From an uncultured Eubacteriales bacterium (lineage in GTDB: Bacteria > Acidobacteriota > Aminicenantia > Aminicenantales > Aminicenantaceae): a stretch of 64,000 nt of DNA. Both the position numbers and the translations under genes were made by a program. Location: NCBI GenBank assembly GCA_964440805.1, contig CAYTTR010000004.1, forward strand, positions 15,040 to 79,039, given 5' to 3'. Below, piece after piece: positions 5,188 to 56,350 of this stretch (position 1 is its first letter; the number at the start of each line of letters is the position of its first letter). Under the pieces are notes generated by a model. It was not told where the DNA came from. It did not search any database and saw only the letters and a program-made list of their open reading frames with translations.

Positions 5188-5241
5188 TTACTCTATTTCT
5201 GAACCGGTTCCAGGTTGTCGGCAGCTCATCCATTTCAAGGC

Positions 5242-5304
5242 AACAAACGCAAGTAAAGCAATGAACTCAATAAACACGATAAACGCAACTAACGCTATCA
5301 ACGC
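5242..5304 (+). repeat. 9-nt periodic repeat array (7 units), locus R1 of a dispersed family
   Basis: The units read aacaaacgc aagtaaagc aatgaactc aataaacac gataaacgc aactaacgc tatcaacgc. The array lies in a convergent intergenic gap. Confidence 0.8.
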
Positions 5305-5307
5305 AAA

Positions 5308-6504
5308 TTAGAAGCGGAACCGGAGCCCTGCTTTAACGGTTATGCCGGAGAAAGAGACCACAGCTTCCTTAACATCAGAGACCCCTGCTTCTCCGGGCTT
5401 CTGTCTGCTTATAAAGAGCAGGGGATAAGATTTTTGGGCTGAAACTCGAGCCTGATAAATGTACAAAGTTCCCTTTTCTTCTGAAGTTTCTCCATCTGAT
5501 TCAATATAAATGTTGGTACCTTTGAATCCACTAATTTCAGCGTATTGCCCGGAAGCTTCAACGAACAGCCCAAGAAAAGAACCGAGCCAGGCTATAATAC
5601 CGGCACTTCCTCTAAATCCGCTACCTCTTGTGGTAGCTTCTCCCTGCCATCTGATCCAATCTTCACCTGTCTGGATGTGATAGTAATAGCTTGCCTTGGC
5701 GAAGTAGTAATCGACTCCAGCTTTTAAGTAAAAGAAATCGACAGGAGAATAAACGAGAGAAAAACGGAGGGGAAAAGCCTTAATTTCAGGCCTGGTGGTG
5801 AAGATGTCCTTTCGCGTTCCCTTCATAAGTTCAACCTGGCTCTCTTTTTCTCCGCTAAGATAATCAAGTCCGATGCCAAGAGATACCTGACGTGAAAGAG
5901 TAATATTCAGCTCTGCACCGACATTGTAACTAAGACGAAGAGGAGAAACCGTTCCAGTGGCTGTTGCCCCCAACGAATCTTTATAGAATCCAGCTAATCC
6001 CTCTGAGCCCCGGTTGAGGTCTCCTCCACCAAGGATGTTTCCTCCTCCTGTTAGAGAAAACTGAGCGGAAGGGAATTGGGCCGGGAGTTGAATTGAAGAT
6101 CTTTTTTCGGGACGGACTATTTGTTTTTCCTTGACAGGAGGAGGCTTTTCTTCTGCTTTCTCTTGGGGCAATTTTATTTTTTCTGGCCTTTTTTCTTCAT
6201 CAACATCAGGTTCTATCATCATGACTAAGCTCTCATGAACATAGCCGGAGCCTTCTTCTCCTTCATCTGAGACGAAGTCAACTTTATACCATTCGCCTTC
6301 TTTTTCCAGCAAGCTCAGGTAGCTTCCCAGGGGAGCCTGATAAATAATTAGGCTTGTTATATCCGGTTTCAAACGAATGTTTGCCTGTTCTGCCACTACC
6401 TTGAGTTGAATGTTTGACGGCTGGGTCAAAGCAGGCGTTAGAAAAAGAAAGTTTGCCAAAAGGAAAACAATACCGGTTTTAGTAATATTTTTCATTTTTC
6501 CCAC
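5308..6504 (-). CDS. outer-membrane beta-barrel protein with an N-terminal bacterial SH3-like domain
   Basis: It has a signal peptide and an SH3b-like segment (ANIRLKPDITS...EWYKVDF...GYVHESLV). A Pro/Glu/Lys-rich linker follows, then alternating-hydrophobic beta-strand sequence ending in ...AGLRFRF with an aromatic C-terminus. Confidence 0.65.
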   Translation of the reverse strand: MGKMKNITKTGIVFLLANFLFLTPALTQPSNIQLKVVAEQANIRLKPDITSLIIYQAPLGSYLSLLEKEGEWYKVDFVSDEGEEGSGYVHESLVMMIEPDVDEEKRPEKIKLPQEKAEEKPPPVKEKQIVRPEKRSSIQLPAQFPSAQFSLTGGGNILGGGDLNRGSEGLAGFYKDSLGATATGTVSPLRLSYNVGAELNITLSRQVSLGIGLDYLSGEKESQVELMKGTRKDIFTTRPEIKAFPLRFSLVYSPVDFFYLKAGVDYYFAKASYYYHIQTGEDWIRWQGEATTRGSGFRGSAGIIAWLGSFLGLFVEASGQYAEISGFKGTNIYIESDGETSEEKGTLYIYQARVSAQKSYPLLFISRQKPGEAGVSDVKEAVVSFSGITVKAGLRFRF

Positions 6505-6582
6505 CGGATAGATTCATCTTCATTCTTTTTGATTATAGGAGAATTCCCGGCTCCTGGCAAATACAACTTGTACAGTAAAACT

Positions 6583-6993
6583 AATTACCCATGGCGGCCT
6601 GGCCGCCTGTTGTCTTTCTCGGTCTATTTTGGGATCGCCATTGCCACTAAGCGGCCTTGCGATGACATGGAAATTAAGTCACTTCGCCCATCTCAACTGT
6701 TAATTTTGTTTTTCTCGTTTATTTAGTTTGTCTCGTACAATCTTTCAAAACCAAACAAACTAAATAAGCTGGATAAACCAAATGAACCATATAAACGCTA
6801 TTAACGCAATCAACTCTATTAACGCTTTTTACTTGTCTCGCTCTCATCGACCATCTTTTTTTTATTTAACTGAATTAACTGAACAGACCGAATAAACGAA
6901 ATAGACAGAAAGGACTGAACAGACAGAACAGACATCTATAATTGTTTTTCTTCAGGGAAAGGGGTGTCCCTTTGGGGGAACGTCCCCCTTTTT
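6583..6993 (+). repeat. composite intergenic repeat element, locus R2 (longest copy): head ATTACCCA, two 9-nt periodic arrays, double hairpin plus T5
   Basis: Array B lies at ~6751-6826 (...tggataaac caaatgaac catataaac gctattaac gcaatcaac tctattaac). Array D lies at 6881-6934 (gaacagacc gaataaacg aaatagaca gaaaggact gaacagaca gaacagaca). The hairpin module at 6948-6993 reads aaagggGTGTcccttt gggggAACGTccccc ttttt. R2 is collinear with R4 at 15485-15768. Confidence 0.8.
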
Positions 6994-6996
6994 GAT

Positions 6997-8304
6997 TCAG
7001 CGGAATAATAATGTACTGCTGGTATAGAAAGTTCCGGCTATGGCTCCGGTCATAAGGCAAGCCAGAGTGGCTGCCAGGAGCGCTTTAAATCCCAGGCGGC
7101 TTATGTCTTTAATCCGGTCCGGAGCCAGGGCTCCCACCCCTCCTACAAAAATGGCCAGTGAGGCTATATGGGCAAAACCGCAAAGAGCATAAGAAGTAAT
7201 GATGGCTGAGCGGGGATGAATCAGTTTCCCTTCAGCAATAAGTTCGGCCAGGTGCTGGTAAGCCACTACTTCGGTAGCCACAGTTCTTTCTCCTATGACC
7301 TTAGCTGCGGTCATGGCATCTTGGGGAGGAATCCCCAGGGCCAGGGTAAGAGGATAAAACACAACTCCCAGAAGCGATTCCAGCGACCATTGGAAATTGA
7401 GACCCAGCAAGCGATTAAGATAGCCGCCTGAAAATCCCAGAATAAGATCAAAGAGAGCCAGAAGTCCCAGGAAAGCCAGGAGAAGGGTTACTATCCCTCC
7501 CAGGAGTTTCAGCCCGCTGTTAGCTCCTTCGATTATGGCCATAATAAGATTGTCAGGCCTCTCATAATAGGGTTTGATGCTGAGCCCCAGAGTTTTTGGT
7601 TGTTCTGATTCAGGAACAATGAGTTTGGCCATTATCACAGCAGCAGGCACCGAAAGAAAAGAAGCCGAAACCAGGTGCCCGGCTATGGTGGGAAGGTTTT
7701 CCCGCAGGGCAAATACATAAAGAGCCAGGACCGTGGAAGCAATGGTTCCCATTCCCGCTGAAAGCACCGTAACCAGTTCAGACCGGGTCATATCTTTTAG
7801 GTGAGGCCTGATAACCAGAGCAGACTCTACTCCTACGAACATGTTGCTGGAAGCGGCCAGGGATTCGGCTCCGCTTATTCTCATTAGCCTGGTGAAAAGG
7901 AAGGAAAATCCCTTGATCAAGAGAGGCATGATTTTTAAATAATAGAGGGCGCTGATAAGAGCGGCAAAAAAGATGATGGTGGGTAAAGCCTGAAAGGCCA
8001 GGAAATATCCCAATGAAGTTTCTCCTGCTTCATTAACCGCTCCAGGAGGCAAGGCCAGCCGGCCGAAAAGAAATCTGGTGCCGGCTTGAGCGGAATCAAG
8101 GACTATAACTACCACCTTGTTTAGAAAAAGAAACAGCTTTGTTCCCGCAGGAACCAGGAAGATGAAGACGGCAAATAGAATCTGAATGGTGATCCCCCAG
8201 CTTACCACTCTCCAGTTTATCAGGCGCCTGTGTTCAGAAAAAAGCCAGGCAATAAAAACCATGACGAATATTCCCAGAAAGCTAATTAAGTTGTATGTTT
8301 CCAT
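6997..8304 (-). CDS. nupC: NupC/CNT family concentrative nucleoside transporter
   Basis: 435-aa polytopic protein. It carries the CNT signature region SGAESLAASSNMFVGVESALVIRPHL and the C-terminal ALCGFAHIASLAIFVGG. Confidence 0.85.
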   Translation of the reverse strand: METYNLISFLGIFVMVFIAWLFSEHRRLINWRVVSWGITIQILFAVFIFLVPAGTKLFLFLNKVVVIVLDSAQAGTRFLFGRLALPPGAVNEAGETSLGYFLAFQALPTIIFFAALISALYYLKIMPLLIKGFSFLFTRLMRISGAESLAASSNMFVGVESALVIRPHLKDMTRSELVTVLSAGMGTIASTVLALYVFALRENLPTIAGHLVSASFLSVPAAVIMAKLIVPESEQPKTLGLSIKPYYERPDNLIMAIIEGANSGLKLLGGIVTLLLAFLGLLALFDLILGFSGGYLNRLLGLNFQWSLESLLGVVFYPLTLALGIPPQDAMTAAKVIGERTVATEVVAYQHLAELIAEGKLIHPRSAIITSYALCGFAHIASLAIFVGGVGALAPDRIKDISRLGFKALLAATLACLMTGAIAGTFYTSSTLLFR

Positions 8305-8359
8305 TATTCCGCTATCCGGCCTTATTTTTTGTTAAAACAACATTTTTTTTATTTATAAA

Positions 8360-8554
8360 ACTAATTTCCCATTGCATCCTTGTCACCCATAACGATTGAA
8401 AATGATCATTTTCCATTTTTGAGGGTGCCGGTTGTTTTTCTTGCTCATCTAATCCAATCTTAAACTCAATAAACACGATAAACACTATTAACGCAAGAAA
8501 CGCTATAAACGCATTTCTTCAGGGAAAGGGGTGTCCCTTTGGGGAACGTCCCCC
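8360..8554 (+). repeat. intergenic repeat element, locus R3 (head, one 9-nt array, double-hairpin module)
   Basis: Its head taaaactaatttccca compares with R2 taaaactaattaccca. The array at 8459-8512 reads cttaaactc aataaacac gataaacac tattaacgc aagaaacgc tataaacgc. The module ttcttcagggaaaggggtgtccctttggggaacgtcccc is near-identical to R2 6948-6988. Confidence 0.8.
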
Positions 8555-10009: not shown

Positions 10010-10219
10010 GTAAGCATCTCTAAAGCCGTGATAAGAGGAAGGGTATGGGATTCGTCACCCGCTCGATTCCCCGGCGAGGAATCTCGCTCCCATTCGGGCT
10101 TCGCTCTCCTCTCCTCCGGAGAGGAACCATGCCCGCTCAGCCCTCATAGTGGATTCCTCATCCCATACCCTTCCTCTTTTTTATCTAAACAATCTATATC
10201 ACGGAATTAGAGATGCTTC
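10010..10219. mobile_element. MITE-like element: ~24-50 bp imperfect terminal inverted repeats flanked by a 10-bp direct repeat
   Basis: The direct repeat caagctcaac occurs at 10000-10009 and 10220-10229. The left end is gtaagcatctctaaagccgtgata, and the reverse complement of the right end is ggaagcatctctaattccgtgata (21/24 matches). A further inner inverted repeat pairs agaggaagggtatggga with tcccatacccttcctct. The core is GC-rich, contains an 8-bp hairpin (tcctctcc tcc ggagagga), and has no credible ORF. Confidence 0.6.
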
Positions 10220-15447: not shown

Positions 15448-15484
15448 ATTTTCTGCTTTAAAATTCACTCTAAGTGCAGCCGAT

Positions 15485-15768
15485 TACCCACAGCATCCTC
15501 ATCGTCTGTGACGGGAAAACATGGATTTCATGGCATGTTTAGGACCGAGCGAAGCCGAGTGATGTGGAAATTGCCACACTTCGCCCATATCACCCCACTA
15601 TCTTGTTTATTTAGTTTCACCCTTTTCAAACCGAACAAACCAGATAGACCAGATGAACGCTATAAACGCAAAAACGCTATTAACGCGATTAACTATTCCT
15701 GTTTTTCTCGCTCCCCATTTATTTAACTTAATCAACTGAACAGACCGAATAGACGGAATAGACTGAGC
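15485..15768 (+). repeat. intergenic repeat element, locus R4 (head, two 9-nt arrays), collinear paralogue of R2
   Basis: R4 gtgatgtggaaattgccacacttcgcccatatca corresponds to R2 gatgacatggaaattaagtcacttcgcccatctca. Shared segments are tttatttagttt, cttttcaaacc, ataaacgc, tattaacgc, tttttctcgctc, atttatttaact and aactgaacagaccgaata. The arrays lie at 15632-15693 and 15738-15764. Confidence 0.8.
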
Positions 15769-28486: not shown

Positions 28487-31400
28487 ATGAAAAAGAGATT
28501 GATTCCTTTTTTAGTCTTTTTTATTTTTTTACTCTTTTCTTTTCCAGCCGAAGCTGTGGACATAAATAATACATTAATGCTGACTCAACCTGCGGTGGGG
28601 CAAAATATGATTGCTTTCTCTTATGCCAATGATCTCTGGACAGCTGATCTCCAGGGGCAGAATGTCCGCCGGTTGACTTCTCATTCCGGAGAAGAATCCA
28701 ATCCTGTTTTCTCGCCCGACGGTAAATGGATTGCTTTCAGTGGACAGTATGACGGCAACACCGATGTTTATCTTGTCCCGGCTGAGGGAGGGATCCCCAA
28801 AAGGCTCACTTGGCATCCGGGCGAGGATATTGTCAGGGGTTTTACCCCGGACGGTTCAGCCGTTGTCTTCATGTCCTCCCGCCATTCATTCACCAGAGCC
28901 AGAAGCCGTTTATTTACTGTTTCTGTGGACGGAGGCATGCCCCAGCCCTTGGTGATTCCGTATGCTCATAAAGCATCCTATTCTCCGGATGGGACAAAGA
29001 TGGCCTACACTCCCTTTGGAGAAGCTTTTCAACAGTGGAAGAATTACCGGGGAGGAACGGTTTCCCGGGTCTGGATTTTTAATTTCAATGACAACTCAAT
29101 TGAAAAAATCCCTCAACCGGAAGGACGCTGCAACGACACTGATCCTATGTGGCTGGGCGATAAAATTTACTTTCGTTCAGATAGAAACGGTGAGTTTAAC
29201 CTTTTTTCCTTTGACCCCGGTACCCGGGAAATTCGCCAGTTGACCCAGCATGATGATTTTCCTGTTGTTAGTGCTTCGGCTGGAGGAGGAAAGATTATCC
29301 ATGAGCAGGCCGGGCAGCTCCATCTCTTTGACCCGGCCAAGGAGACTACAGCTTCTCTAACTATAGGCGTTGCAGCTGACCTCCTTGAGCTCCGGCCCCG
29401 TTATGTTAAGGGAGAGCGTTATATCCGCCATGCTGATATTTCTCCTTCAGGAGCCAGGGCTGTTTTTGAATTCAGGGGGGAGGTAGTTACTTTGCCGGCT
29501 GAAAAAGGAGACTTCAGGAATTTGACCGGTACCCCGGGGGTTCATGAAAGGGAGCCTGTTTGGTCGCCGGACGGCAAAAAAATAGCTTATTTCTCAGATG
29601 AATCGGGTGAATATGCTCTTCATGTGTTTTCCAGAGACAAAGAGGAAGTAAGGAAATTCGAGCTTCCCGGCGCCGGCTTTTATGAGAGATTAGTCTGGTC
29701 ACCGGACAGTAAGAAATTAACTTATACAGATAATTCCTGGAGTCTTTTCTGGATTGACCCCGAGACTGGAATTTCAGAAAAAATAGGTCAGGAATACCTC
29801 TACGGTCCATCCGGACTTAAAACATTGAAGGGCGTCTGGTCGCCTGATTCCCGCTGGATTGCTTATACCTTAAACACCAGGGCTTATATTCAGCGGGTTT
29901 ATGTTTATTCGCTGGAAGAGAAGAAATCCTACCCTATAACCGACGGATTGAGTGAAGTAAGTGAACCTGAATTCGACAGCAGCGGAAAATACCTCTATTT
30001 CTTTGCCTCCACTGATGCCGGTCCGGTTAAACACTGGTTCGCCATGTCCAGTGCTGACATGGAAATGAATCAGGCCCTTTATTTAGCTGTTCTGCAAAAA
30101 GGAACACCTTCTCCTCTGGCCAAGGAAAGCGATGAAGAGAAGCTTGAAGAAGAAGGAAAAGAAGAAGCAGAAAAAGGTGCCGGCGAAAAAGCTGAGAAAA
30201 CTTCAGAAGATTCTCAAGTCAAGATTGATTTTGAAGATTTAAACGAAAGAATAGTCTCTTTCCCCATTGAATCGGCCGGTTATTTCAATCTTCAGGTTGG
30301 CGGTGAAGGTCAGATATATTACTTGGAAGTTCTTCCCGGAAGCCGCGGTTTTGGGCAAGAAAGGTCAAAACTTCATCTTTTCGACCTAAAAAAACGGCAG
30401 GATGAGGTGCTTATTTCTGGAATCAATAATTACAAAATCTCTGCTGATAATAAAAAAATCCTATATTTATCACGAAACCTATGGGGGATAGTTGATGCCG
30501 GGAAAAAAGTTAATCCAGGAGAGGGGAAGCTAAATGTTGATTCCATCGAGGCCCGCATTAATCCTGCAAAAGAATGGCAACAGATTTTTGATGAAGCCTG
30601 GAGGATAAACCGTGATTATTTTTATGATCCCGCTATGCATGGAGTTGACTGGGAAAAAATGCGGGAGAAATACAGCTATTTCCTCTCTCATCTTTCCTGC
30701 CGCCAGGATCTTTCCCGGGTAATCCAATGGATGTGCCGCGAATTGAGGGTCGGTCATCACAGAACAGGTGGTGGAGATACTCTGGTGGAGGCAAAACGTA
30801 TTCCCGTGGGATTGCTGGGAGCCGATTATTCCGTTGAAAACAACCGTTTCAGATTCAAGAAGGTTTACGGCGGTCTTAATTGGAATCCGGAACTCCGGTC
30901 ACCCTTGACGGAACCGGGAGTAGAAGTTAAAGAAAGAGAATATTTGCTGGCGGTAAACGGCGAGGATGTTAAGTTCCCGGCAAATTTATATCAATATTTC
31001 GATAACACAGCCAGCCGGCTTATCGAGATTACAGTCGGCCCCTCGCCGGATGGAAAAGGAGCCCGTACTGTCCAGGTGGTTCCTCTTCCCAATGAATATA
31101 ACCTGAGAAACCGTGATTGGGTGGAAGGTAACATTGAGAAGATCAACAAAGCCACTGACGGAAAAGTAGCCTATGTCTATGTGCCCAATACAACCACTTT
31201 GGGCCATACTTACTTTAAAAGATATTTCTTCCCCCAATCACATAAGGATGCCATAATTGTTGATGAGCGTTTTAACGGAGGAGGACAGGTAGCTGATTAC
31301 TATATAGATATTCTCCGGCGTCCCTTTGTCTGTATGTGGAATATGCGCTATGGAGCTGATCTTAAAACACCCAGTGCTTCAATCCAGGGGCCTAAAGTTA

Positions 31401-31768
31401 TGCTCATCAATGAATCTGCTGGTTCGGGCGGGGATTTGCTTCCCTGGATGTTCCGCAAGTTTGAGGTGGGAACGCTTATCGGAACCAGGACCTGGGGCGG
31501 TCTGGTGGGAACATTGGGCTTTCCTTTATTAATGGACGGAGGCTATGTCACCGCACCCAATCTTGCCATCTGGACCGAAGACGGTTGGGTGGTAGAAAAT
31601 GAAGGAGTTCCCCCGGATATTGAAGTGGAACAGATTCCGGCTGAAGTTATTGACGGTCATGATCCCCAACTGGAAAGAGCTATTCAGGTTGTTTTGGAAG
31701 AACTGGAAAAGAATCCTCCCCGAAGGCTGGTCCGGCCTCCCTACCCGGATAAGGTAAAGAGGAAATAG
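28487..31768 (+). CDS. tricorn-type protease (beta-propellers + PDZ + S41 peptidase domain), secreted
   Basis: 1093 aa with a signal peptide. It has repeated TolB-like blades (PVFSPDGKWIAFS, ASYSPDGTKMAY, PVWSPDGKKIAYF, LVWSPDSKKLTY, GVWSPDSRWIAY), an acidic linker and a C-terminal S41 region INESAGSGGD. Confidence 0.85.
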   Translation: MKKRLIPFLVFFIFLLFSFPAEAVDINNTLMLTQPAVGQNMIAFSYANDLWTADLQGQNVRRLTSHSGEESNPVFSPDGKWIAFSGQYDGNTDVYLVPAEGGIPKRLTWHPGEDIVRGFTPDGSAVVFMSSRHSFTRARSRLFTVSVDGGMPQPLVIPYAHKASYSPDGTKMAYTPFGEAFQQWKNYRGGTVSRVWIFNFNDNSIEKIPQPEGRCNDTDPMWLGDKIYFRSDRNGEFNLFSFDPGTREIRQLTQHDDFPVVSASAGGGKIIHEQAGQLHLFDPAKETTASLTIGVAADLLELRPRYVKGERYIRHADISPSGARAVFEFRGEVVTLPAEKGDFRNLTGTPGVHEREPVWSPDGKKIAYFSDESGEYALHVFSRDKEEVRKFELPGAGFYERLVWSPDSKKLTYTDNSWSLFWIDPETGISEKIGQEYLYGPSGLKTLKGVWSPDSRWIAYTLNTRAYIQRVYVYSLEEKKSYPITDGLSEVSEPEFDSSGKYLYFFASTDAGPVKHWFAMSSADMEMNQALYLAVLQKGTPSPLAKESDEEKLEEEGKEEAEKGAGEKAEKTSEDSQVKIDFEDLNERIVSFPIESAGYFNLQVGGEGQIYYLEVLPGSRGFGQERSKLHLFDLKKRQDEVLISGINNYKISADNKKILYLSRNLWGIVDAGKKVNPGEGKLNVDSIEARINPAKEWQQIFDEAWRINRDYFYDPAMHGVDWEKMREKYSYFLSHLSCRQDLSRVIQWMCRELRVGHHRTGGGDTLVEAKRIPVGLLGADYSVENNRFRFKKVYGGLNWNPELRSPLTEPGVEVKEREYLLAVNGEDVKFPANLYQYFDNTASRLIEITVGPSPDGKGARTVQVVPLPNEYNLRNRDWVEGNIEKINKATDGKVAYVYVPNTTTLGHTYFKRYFFPQSHKDAIIVDERFNGGGQVADYYIDILRRPFVCMWNMRYGADLKTPSASIQGPKVMLINESAGSGGDLLPWMFRKFEVGTLIGTRTWGGLVGTLGFPLLMDGGYVTAPNLAIWTEDGWVVENEGVPPDIEVEQIPAEVIDGHDPQLERAIQVVLEELEKNPPRRLVRPPYPDKVKRK

Positions 31769-56204: not shown

Positions 56205-56345
56205 CTTCTAATTAATTACCCAAGACAGTCATGCGGCCGGCTTCAGATAAAAAATGATAAACGAGATGAACCAGATAAACTAAACAAACCGGCCAAACCA
56301 AATAAACTAAATAGACGATATAAACTAAATAGACTGAACAGACAG
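56205..56345 (+). repeat. intergenic repeat element, locus R5 (head + uninterrupted 10-unit 9-nt array)
   Basis: The head is taattaattaccca. The array at 56256-56345 reads gataaacga gatgaacca gataaacta aacaaaccg gccaaacca aataaacta aatagacga tataaacta aatagactg aacagacag. Confidence 0.8.
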
Positions 56346-56350
56346 ACCAT

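Follow-up and report, generated by a model that had tools for sequence, protein, structure and literature searches.

A modular, high-copy family of non-coding intergenic repeats built on a strict 9-nt unit in an uncultured Aminicenantes bacterium

What are arrays of short, degenerate tandem units doing between the genes of a bacterial chromosome? The question is raised by a 64,000-nt stretch of DNA from an uncultured member of the Aminicenantaceae (contig CAYTTR010000004.1 of assembly GCA_964440805.1, positions 15,040 to 79,039 of the forward strand), referred to here as the window, in which five intergenic loci carry tandem arrays with a 9-nt period: R1 (~5243-5305), R2 (6576-6993), R3 (8356-8553), R4 (15482-15766) and R5 (56207-56346). 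A preliminary description, made from the sequence alone, had regarded these loci as a genome-specific element resembling repetitive extragenic palindromes (REPs) or MITEs. The present analysis firmly shows that they belong to a real, non-coding, polar, modular, high-copy and lineage-specific family, in which turnover is rapid and some array segments are conserved. As to their nature, we favor, with about even confidence, a lineage-expanded family of modular interspersed intergenic repeats, similar in kind to BIME, BOX and NIME elements, which would act mainly at the level of RNA.

The five loci and the common orientation of their arrays were confirmed by three approaches. Tandem Repeats Finder reported repeats of period 9 or 18 at 5240-5306, 6699-6736, 6790-6826, 6866-6934, 8461-8513, 15656-15763 and 56257-56331, with an 18-nt super-period in the arrays. 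A four-unit pattern (AACNNNANNAACGCNANNAACGCNANNAAC, allowing up to two mismatches) matched the window 12 times, always on the plus strand and inside R1 to R5, and had no match in 100 dinucleotide-preserving shuffles. Finally, an autocorrelation scan of the whole window (lags 5 to 15, 45-nt window, at least 62% self-identity) detected seven arrays at lag 9, every one of them inside the five loci, and no arrays at the remaining lags between 5 and 14; the period is therefore specific. The single match at lag 15 was a coding, GAA-rich stretch. This period-3/15 repeat (30130-30195) lies within a 1093-amino-acid open reading frame (ORF; 28487-31768) and probably codes for an acidic low-complexity stretch.

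A recount gave 50 units where about 45 had been reported earlier, and their assignment to the plus strand was borne out. When these units were phased, position 1 was A in 90% of cases, position 2 a pyrimidine in 92%, position 3 A in 72%, position 4 a purine in 100%, position 5 A in 92% and position 6 C in 92%; positions 7 and 8 were uninformative, and position 9 was A in 62%. The unit is thus a core, AYARAC, followed by three variable bases, and each array contains 4 to 10 AYARAC motifs.

Each element is composed of one or two arrays and, often, one or more short, G/T-rich inverted arms, to which a low-copy, structured 5' domain (R2 and R4) and a G/C hairpin module of 36 to 39 nt (R2 and R3) may be added. 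Head, 5' domain, G/T arm, type 1 array, spacer blocks, type 2 array and hairpin module are combined in differing subsets across the five loci. Several shared parts proposed earlier are indeed present, namely the head, TAAAACTAATT(A/T)CCCA, in R2, R3 and R5 and partially in R4; the spacer blocks and the G/T-rich stretches complementary to the units; and the double hairpin, which is an identical block in R2 and R3. The G/T-rich arms often sit before arrays, with which they could pair. R2 and R4 are full-length paralogues that share the head, the 5' domain, a box (CACTTCGCCCAT(C/A)TCA), the G/T arm, array 1, the spacer and array 2.

All parts are given here as read on the plus strand. R2 starts with the head TAAAACTAATTACCCA (6576-6591; family D9), which lies directly upstream of the predicted -35 box of the promoter of the SH3-domain gene (6560-6532, minus strand). 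Its 5' domain (6583-6675), present at single-copy depth, has a closing helix formed by AATTaCCCATG (6583-6593) with CATGGaAATT (6666-6675) and includes a hairpin, GGCGGCC-T-GGCCGCC, at 6593-6607. The box CACTTCGCCCATCTCA (6680-6695), common only to R2 and R4, is followed by the G/T-rich arm (6699-6736), whose reverse-complement-type units, GTTTATTTA and GTTTGTCTC, pair with the first units of array 1 (6755-6826; eight units, AACGC type) to form a long imperfect hairpin. The spacer (6827-6873; family D2) holds the blocks ...CTTGTCTCGCTC... and ATTTATTTAACT, also found in R4, and leads to array 2 (6874-6936; seven units, ACAGAC/ATAGAC type). The terminator-like G/C hairpin module, TTTCTTCAGGGAAAGGGGTGTCCCTTTGGGGGAACGTCCCCC and then TTTTT (6947-6993), ends 3 nt from the NupC stop codon (6997).

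The other full-length paralogue, R4, has its head GATTACCCA and 5' domain at 15482-15572 (closed by 15482-15492 with 15563-15572, and likewise at single-copy depth), the box CACTTCGCCCATATCA at 15577-15592 and the G/T-rich arm TTGTTTATTTAGTTT at 15603-15617. Its array 1 (15626-15697) has eight units, one of which is only 8 nt long and shifts the phase; the spacer (TGTTTTTCTCGCTC, ATTTATTTAACT) and the four units of array 2 (15731-15766) together occupy 15698-15766, and the segment 15715-15766 is present at ~5-8x depth. R3 consists of the head TAAAACTAATTTCCCA (8356-8371), a body (8372-8459) with the palindrome GAAAATGATCATTTTC and a short G/T-rich block, GGTTGTTTTTCTTGC, an array of six units (8460-8513) and the G/C hairpin module (8514-8553), which abuts the stop codon of a YggU-family gene (8554). 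In R5 the head TCTAATTAATTACCCA (56207-56222) precedes an array of 10 units of mixed types (56257-56346) that ends 5 nt from the stop codon of a sodium:solute symporter (SSF) gene (56351). R1, flanked by convergent genes, has neither head nor hairpin and consists of seven AACGC-type units (5243-5305); the array comes to within 3 nt of the stop codon of the SH3-domain gene on the minus strand (5308-6504).

Copy number was estimated from depth, by aligning Logan contigs of three hypersaline-mat metagenomes (X1 to X3) to the region. Unique flanks were covered 5-8x, compared with 152-180x for the bin with the R1 array, 15-69x for the R2 arrays and 350-990x for bins with the hairpin module. The R2 module reached ~950-990x against 6.4x, and the module core (8526-8552) ~1200x in X1 (5.8x in adjacent sequence) and ~2360x in X3 (8.5x). 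Depth over the R2 and R4 5' domains, at 5-6x, did not exceed that of the flanks. As depth is high only for the arrays and the hairpin module, these are the repeated entities, and not the whole elements. The values suggest dozens of arrays per genome equivalent and ~200-280 copies of the hairpin module per genome equivalent, a depth to which related populations in the same samples contribute.

The module is nearly invariant, the sole variant present at 2% or more being G8529A (7-9%). Its flanks vary from copy to copy, and many copies have an A-run before and a T-run after them. An AACGC-type array precedes the module in a minority of copies (~5-15% by depth), and the polarity is then constant, with the array followed by CAGGG...CCCCC and T-rich sequence; 11 contigs carry an A/C-rich array immediately 5' of the module, and array joints into 6946-6949 recur. 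The module is therefore an independent, REP-like and bidirectional-terminator-like repeat of the Aminicenantes lineage, most copies of which are flanked by A- and T-runs and not by arrays.

These properties bear on the earlier comparison to REPs and MITEs, which holds in a broad sense: the family is dispersed, non-coding, multi-copy, intergenic and lineage-specific, but it lacks defining features of MITEs and the tags of REPs. REPs are short, imperfect, extragenic palindromes that number from tens to thousands, a description that suits the hairpin module alone (36-39 nt, depth ratio of ~200-280, many different flanks), since the arrays are not palindromic. GTAG and CGTC REPs carry an unpaired terminal tetranucleotide, and CGTC REPs have stems of 8-9 bp, loops of 4-5 nt and a CCA tail (PMC3733652). 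The module has no GTAG, its CGTC lies inside the loop and stem of the second hairpin (GGGGAACGTCCCC), and its stems are 5-6 bp long. It thus resembles REPs in being short, palindromic, extragenic, nearly invariant, present in hundreds of copies and often flanked by A- or T-runs, and differs from them in tag and stem length and in the lack of head-to-head dimers in the window. With regard to MITEs, the head TAAAACTAATTACCCA has no inverted counterpart at the 3' ends of R2 to R5, and the internal inverted repeats are unit-like arms, not termini. No target duplication was recognizable; an empty site is available only for R4, in the nearest relative, where the flanks are ~20% diverged and the junction is not placeable to the base. 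Full-length, near-identical copies such as MITEs possess were not seen, as the 5' domains are at flank depth, and neither a RAYT, the IS200/IS605-type tyrosine transposase associated with REPs, nor any other transposase was found among the 10 of ~59 window ORFs that were scanned against Pfam.

A separate palindromic insertion does occur in the window, at 10012-10218, and is missing from the syntenic spacer of the nearest relative. It has nested inverted repeats, one of 22 nt with 91% complementarity (10012-10033/10197-10218) and one of 19 nt with 100% (10033-10051/10160-10178). This insertion resembles a MITE or foldback element and seems unrelated to the 9-nt arrays.

Other classes were likewise compared. 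The loci are not CRISPRs, as had been stated before, because contiguous 9-nt units without spacers differ from 23-50-nt repeats with unique spacers; nor are they iterons or a plasmid centromere, since their neighbors are chromosomal housekeeping genes with conserved synteny in relatives. Type III toxin-antitoxin RNA repeats (~34-45 nt, with a toxin gene) were rejected, since the period is 9 and the genes downstream are housekeeping genes of the opposite strand. No account of such arrays was found in the literature. The elements fit none of the named classes that were examined, as the defining features of MITEs, REPs, CRISPRs, iterons and type III antitoxins are not those found here.

The closest likeness in behavior is to mosaic elements, that is, short modules in variable number and order that are extragenic and lineage-specific, and indeed orthologues of the elements differ by whole modules. 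BIMEs (the REP clusters of Escherichia coli), pneumococcal BOX elements (boxA-boxB(n)-boxC) and neisserial NIMEs/dRS3 are similarly extragenic, high-copy, lineage-specific and modular, combining short sub-units in variable number with stem-loop modules. They occur at gene 3' ends or in intercistronic positions, where most are transcribed along with the genes, and an influence on the stability and termination of mRNAs is attributed to them. However, they are built from boxes or palindromes of 35-45 nt, whereas the elements described here have a degenerate, strict 9-nt array with a 6-nt core and a polarity. No sequence similarity to these families was seen, with Rfam as the library searched, and the likeness is one of behavior.

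The history of the elements was followed in the nearest relative, represented by loci L241/L242 and L370/L371, whose NupC and SSF proteins are 89% and 88% identical to those of the window and in which 44-54% of 4-fold degenerate sites differ. This relative carries period-9 arrays in the same spacers. Relatives at 72-77% protein identity have syntenic spacers of 12-83 nt, and no arrays were present in the ~100 kb of these examined, which argues for an expansion in one genus-level lineage. R4 as a whole is absent from L241, where the XerC-ComEA spacer measures 167 nt, and from the X3 strain. Of R1, L241 retains only a vestige at the SH3 stop codon, with a different array, of AAAGAAACC type, nearby. 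The 5' half of R2 has a diverged orthologue, while unrelated GC-rich sequence has taken the place of its forward arrays and hairpin module. In R3, the array and hairpin (103 nt) are ~90% identical to the L241 orthologue and the order of units is retained, but the L241 copy has an extra insert of ~140 nt in the body, with further arrays. Likewise, the 3' 70 nt of the R5 array are 83% identical in L370, with unit order retained, while G/T-rich arms stand where the head and the rest of the 5' part would be. Elements have evidently been gained, lost, extended and remodelled since the split from these relatives.

A second kind of heterogeneity was seen within a single strain. The SH3-domain gene at 5704-6300 shows ~109 differences and 12 gap positions (roughly 18%) relative to a contig of run X3, while the adjoining 671 nt (6300-6970; the 5' end of the gene, the promoter and R2) show only four differences (0.6%). 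This mosaic divergence across 5704-6970 suggests a recent recombination tract ending inside the SH3-domain gene.

Such turnover could be that of a functionless by-product, produced by slippage or unequal recombination beside stalling-prone hairpins and then left to drift, with its apparent conservation reflecting low-divergence AT-rich spacers or gene conversion. The loss of conservation in the R1 and R2 arrays, the absence of R4 and the 140-nt insert in the L241 copy of R3 agree with this explanation, as do the mosaic region around R2 in the X3 strain and the 18-nt super-period, a sign of duplicated unit pairs. Other spacers of the same genome pair are also 68-77% identical; the case for purifying selection is strong when measured against 4-fold sites and weakened by this comparison. 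However, neutral slippage does not account well for a period so specific (9, with 7 elsewhere, and hardly ever 8 or 10), for a core that persists while the remaining positions degenerate and is the same across phyla, or for the unit order retained at R3 and R5 despite 48% divergence at 4-fold sites. We consider a purely neutral origin very unlikely, and some arrays are probably maintained by selection, judging from the orthologue alignments.

Could the conserved segments encode peptides? Open minus-strand frames of 17-57 codons do run over every array and would specify hydrophobic (A-F/L-I)n or (L-F-S)n repeats immediately downstream of the preceding stop codon; in R5, the upstream TAA runs straight into an ATG on that strand. 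These frames are open because one unit phase, YTR-TTN-NGT, can never hold a stop. Frames and start codons differ between copies, in line with the earlier statement that no reading frame is conserved, and no common ORF was found. All four array differences in L241 are non-synonymous in the A-F-I frame, I->N and A->E among them; in L370 the ATG is missing and a TAG stop breaks the L-F-S frame; and the period-7 arrays found elsewhere cannot code. Coding was accordingly rejected for the plus-strand I-N-A frame and for the minus-strand A-F-I, L-F-S and V-Y-L frames, as these differ between copies and orthologue changes are non-synonymous or create stops. Small minus-strand peptides are effectively refuted, with a vanishingly small probability left to them.

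The placement of the elements provides more information on what they might do. Their 3' boundary lies 0-5 nt from a stop codon in four of four cases with a preceding minus-strand gene, so that the copies previously noted upstream of minus-strand genes, which were confirmed, also abut the stop of the minus-strand gene before them. The 5' boundary is just upstream of the next gene's promoter, for example TTGCCA-17-TATAAT at 6560-6532, which is conserved in L241. With one end at a stop codon and the other before a promoter, the elements fill exactly the dispensable part of the spacer. The three copies with a hairpin or head that lie within a string of minus-strand genes are antisense to it, and this string is probably one operon, since the corresponding spacers in relatives are 12 nt. 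R4, the only copy in sense orientation, has no hairpin module. The antisense placement of the hairpin copies, together with the module-free R4, is what would be expected if sense-strand terminators within operons were selected against.

The flanking genes are ordinary chromosomal ones, coding for an SH3-domain protein, NupC, YggU, YggT, a DUF1573 protein, XerC/D, a ComEA-like protein, an ECF sigma factor and SSF, with TopA and DprA also among the neighbors, and gene order is conserved in relatives. Hundreds of homologous proteins under the names Candidatus Aminicenantes or Acidobacteriota are 70-77% identical to NupC and SSF, which stand beside elements, and the host is an uncultured Aminicenantes bacterium. 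The window sequence occurs only in microbial-mat and hypersaline-lake metagenomes.

If transcripts cross the elements, several features point to a plus-strand RNA. In R2, as in many other copies, the hairpin is succeeded by a run of T, and the polarity of arrays relative to the module is fixed. The helix that closes the 5' domain differs between R2 and R4 by two compensatory pairs (CCCATG/CATGG versus CCCACA/TGTGG; in R4, gATTaCCCACA/TGTGGaAATT). Compared with R3, the L241 copy shows a compensatory change in its first hairpin (A-T in place of G-C), and in each of the two hairpins one G-C pair has become G-T; the G-T combination is a G.U pair only in plus-strand RNA. The whole window had no match in Rfam at the gathering score, and searches of the loci at E-values up to 5 returned only chance matches to miRNAs and snoRNAs; no tRNA or tmRNA was found.

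One explanation for these features is that the loci are independent plus-strand small-RNA genes, with the head as 5' end and the G/C module as intrinsic terminator, whose 6-15 AYARAC motifs would sequester an RNA-binding protein (Hfq, for example), as CrcZ and CsrB/RsmZ do, or base-pair with G/U-rich, unit-like tracts in other RNAs. R2 and R3 indeed run from a common head to a hairpin with a T-run on the plus strand, the 3' array (plus the terminator in R3) is the best-conserved part in both orthologue comparisons, and both the G.U-compatible changes in L241 and the covariation of the R2/R4 closing helix agree with a structured RNA. A-rich, G-poor arrays should, moreover, be unstructured. A-rich RNAs that titrate Hfq are known (PMC5501646). 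CsrB/RsmZ (GGA) and CrcZ (A-rich, AANAANAA) likewise combine a reiterated, short single-stranded motif with a terminator, and AAYARA is similar to two A-R-N triplets. However, those RNAs are encoded by one to few genes per genome, with defined promoters and irregular motif spacing, while here the spacing is strictly 9 nt and the dozens to hundreds of loci per genome far exceed any known sponge RNA family. Furthermore, R1, R4 and R5 lack the terminator module, R1 also lacks the head, neither head nor promoter is conserved when R2, R3 and R5 are compared with their orthologues, and most copies of the module have no array before them. Only two of three triplets fit A-R-N, and Bacteroidota arrays have T at position 9. 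To our knowledge, Hfq is generally absent in Bacteroidota. We therefore regard dedicated small-RNA genes as quite unlikely.

Promoters and sites of known factors were sought as well. The possibility that the head and the "AAC" units are sigma-54 or ECF promoters was rejected because spacing and strand do not fit, and no sigma-70 promoter upstream of the head is conserved. Visual comparison alone gave no convincing fit to DnaA boxes, the IHF consensus, the integron attC core (RYYYAAC/GTTRRRY), boxA, RNase E sites or Rho rut sites.

The preliminary description had called the repeats genome-specific. This does not hold for the arrays, as similar ones occur in other phyla. They were sought with a six-unit RAC/A pattern in one genome per GTDB species and with an AACGC pattern in JGI metagenomes; the counts that follow are among the matches listed, which do not include the window's own genome. 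Many matches appear to be coding (collagen-like or N-A-T-type), judged from sequence and host, and at least ~55 loci have degenerate, mostly non-coding arrays. Their hosts are Desulfobacterota, Nitrospirota, Bacteroidota/Ignavibacteriota, Verrucomicrobiota and unclassified metagenome-assembled genomes (MAGs), one of which (L086) comes from another hypersaline site. Across 381 kb of listed loci there were 101 arrays at lag 9 and 40 at lag 7, compared with 13, 4 and 2 at lags 8, 10 and 11, and mosaics of adjacent arrays that differ in unit and period are frequent. Dense period-7/9 mosaics were noted in the metagenome contigs L127, L131, L154, L155 and L219, for example GAACCTC x8 beside AACGCAAYA x6, and some of these start directly after a stop codon. 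At positions not forced by the search pattern, position 2 was a pyrimidine in 77-94% and position 3 was A in ~55% in each of three phyla, as in the window. Positions 7 to 9 are lineage-specific, with CCA, CAR or TTT elsewhere and GCW in the window.

Nitrospirota contain inverted array pairs that would fold as long imperfect hairpins. One such pair, in a Nitrospira lenta-like MAG (L060, 5649-5776), fills the spacer that separates prcA from a pafA/dop-like gene in the proteasome operon. A 932-nt contig of a lake metatranscriptome contains prcA and the whole array spacer, and short array unitigs were 10-15 times deeper than their neighbors in two independent RNA runs. Arrays of this kind thus appear to be present in RNA there, on one strand or the other, although residual DNA may contribute.

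BLAST of the 5' domains, box and head against the ~370 retrieved loci gave no homologues. The hairpin module was absent from viral contigs; viral matches to the array pattern were mostly perfect repeats, judged to be coding N-A-T repeats, and were set aside. A head-like CATTACCAAC precedes arrays in L100 and L228 and is not general. In L100, a Deltaproteobacteria MAG, a short, degenerate gene remnant on the reverse strand (~7390-7800) looks like an IS200/RAYT-type transposase, by eye only. The remnant is bounded by terminal inverted repeats of 14 nt (GGGTACGTCCTTCAA / TTGAAGGACGTCCC), and immediately downstream of it is a 9-nt array; this array is preceded by GGAGCAATCAAAGACATTACCAAC, and a near-identical "head" stands before the array in the metagenome locus L228. 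In the metagenome contig L151 (9700-12800), four 9-nt arrays in one orientation lie between what appear, from ORF translations, to be successive small toxin-antitoxin-like gene pairs, in a layout like that of a cassette array.

An alternative is a role at the DNA level, in which the 9-bp units (GTYTRT on the other strand) would be binding sites that nucleate a protein filament. A nucleoid-associated or ribbon-helix-helix type protein would be the candidate; a 9-bp period, being off the helical repeat, would wind the protein round the DNA and could in this way affect local supercoiling, domain boundaries or neighboring promoters. Targets of ribbon-helix-helix proteins, such as the 7-bp heptads bound by the omega protein of pSM19035 and the ParR/ParG centromeres, are head-to-tail arrays of 7-11-bp units, direct or inverted, that nucleate protein filaments. 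These are few, plasmid-borne and next to par or regulator genes, whereas the arrays studied here are chromosomal, dispersed and without an adjacent cognate gene. The strict period with almost no indels, the hexamer core beside three free bases, the core tendency at unforced positions in several phyla and the company of period-7 arrays are all in keeping with protein-binding DNA. The same is true of the arrangement of arrays in the wide sample, where direct and inverted forms occur without orientation bias relative to flanking genes (among ~90 arrays elsewhere, 30 same/same, 24 opposite/opposite, 8 convergent and 7 divergent).

A precedent for this reading exists in Geobacter metallireducens, where families of 7-9-nt tandem repeats, 3-5 per site and often paired on opposite strands, were interpreted as putative sites for unknown global regulators or IHF/HU (PMC2700814). 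They are similarly short, degenerate, tandem and spread over many intergenic sites, but their units are GTTGCTYN, TCTCCGTS[Y] and MTYCTGA, and no AYARAC core, head or hairpin module has been described for them. In the window, moreover, all five loci share a single orientation and the polarity from array to hairpin is fixed, neither of which a symmetric DNA role requires. Positions 7 and 8 have no family consensus and yet are as conserved between orthologues as the core, and no candidate protein is encoded next to the arrays. On balance, DNA-level arrays appear unlikely.

The recurrence of the AYARAC core in 9-nt register across phyla hints at a common reader molecule. The arrays might then be one half of a cross-phylum recognition system, in which one or more conserved proteins read AYARAC (GTYTRT) in a 9-nt register, or a 7-nt register in a sister class, and polymerize on RNA or DNA; we think this distinctly doubtful. 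Another form of the idea would take the arrays as genomic relics or templates of telomerase-like reverse transcriptases that make 9-nt repeats. DRT10 reverse transcriptases, which are telomerase-like, do synthesize perfect 9-nt tandem-repeat cDNA (PMC12632851). That product is extrachromosomal, protein-primed and perfect, whereas the genomic arrays are degenerate mosaics of several unit types; the likeness appears to be a formal coincidence, and a connection is extremely improbable.

Under the explanation that we favor, a mosaic repeat family acting mainly through RNA, the arrays would grow by in-register duplication or slippage, and the elements would spread by duplication, insertion and recombination into free spacer DNA and not by classical transposition with terminal inverted repeats, while selection against sense-strand terminators would filter the insertions. 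They would exert their effects chiefly as RNA, within any transcript that runs across them. Being A-rich and G-poor, the arrays would present single-stranded AYARAC tracts or, with inverted arms, form long imperfect hairpins, and the G/C module would provide a stable hairpin or terminator. Together, these parts may serve as 3'-end or intercistronic elements for RNA stability, processing and termination, and perhaps as protein-binding sites.

A number of results weigh against this explanation. No RNA run with the window sequence was found, which also tells against small-RNA genes. R2 folds well on both strands (z = -3.0 and -4.2), the fold of R4 is no better than that of shuffled sequences (z = -0.6), and neither is that of the hairpin module on either strand. 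No convincing plus-strand promoter upstream of the head is conserved in the orthologues. The strand signal is mixed, as G8529A would break a plus-strand pair and give a G.U pair on the minus strand; using variant spectra to assign the RNA strand of the hairpins was therefore abandoned, the signals being in conflict. The excess of conservation over other spacers is modest (binomial p of ~0.02 for R3 and ~0.15 for R5), and the lack of orientation bias elsewhere is as compatible with a DNA-level or neutral role as with one in RNA. Finally, no terminal inverted repeats, recognizable target duplication or transposase that would explain the spread was found.

Operon expression, terminators and genome plasticity are all shaped by interspersed repeats such as REP, BIME, BOX and Correia elements, which have been described almost only in cultured Proteobacteria and Firmicutes. 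Here, an uncultured Aminicenantes lineage has filled its spacers with a different module, a strict, degenerate 9-nt array, together with a REP-like hairpin of its own. Should one factor read the arrays, they would constitute a new and testable regulatory layer. If such a reader were shared across phyla, the arrays would be an element of general use in bacterial regulation or architecture, missed so far by annotation in Acidobacteriota/Aminicenantes, Desulfobacterota, Nitrospirota and Bacteroidota. Otherwise, they would still be useful as a marker of spacer turnover and as a likely source of mis-called small hydrophobic ORFs and of contig breaks in metagenomes.

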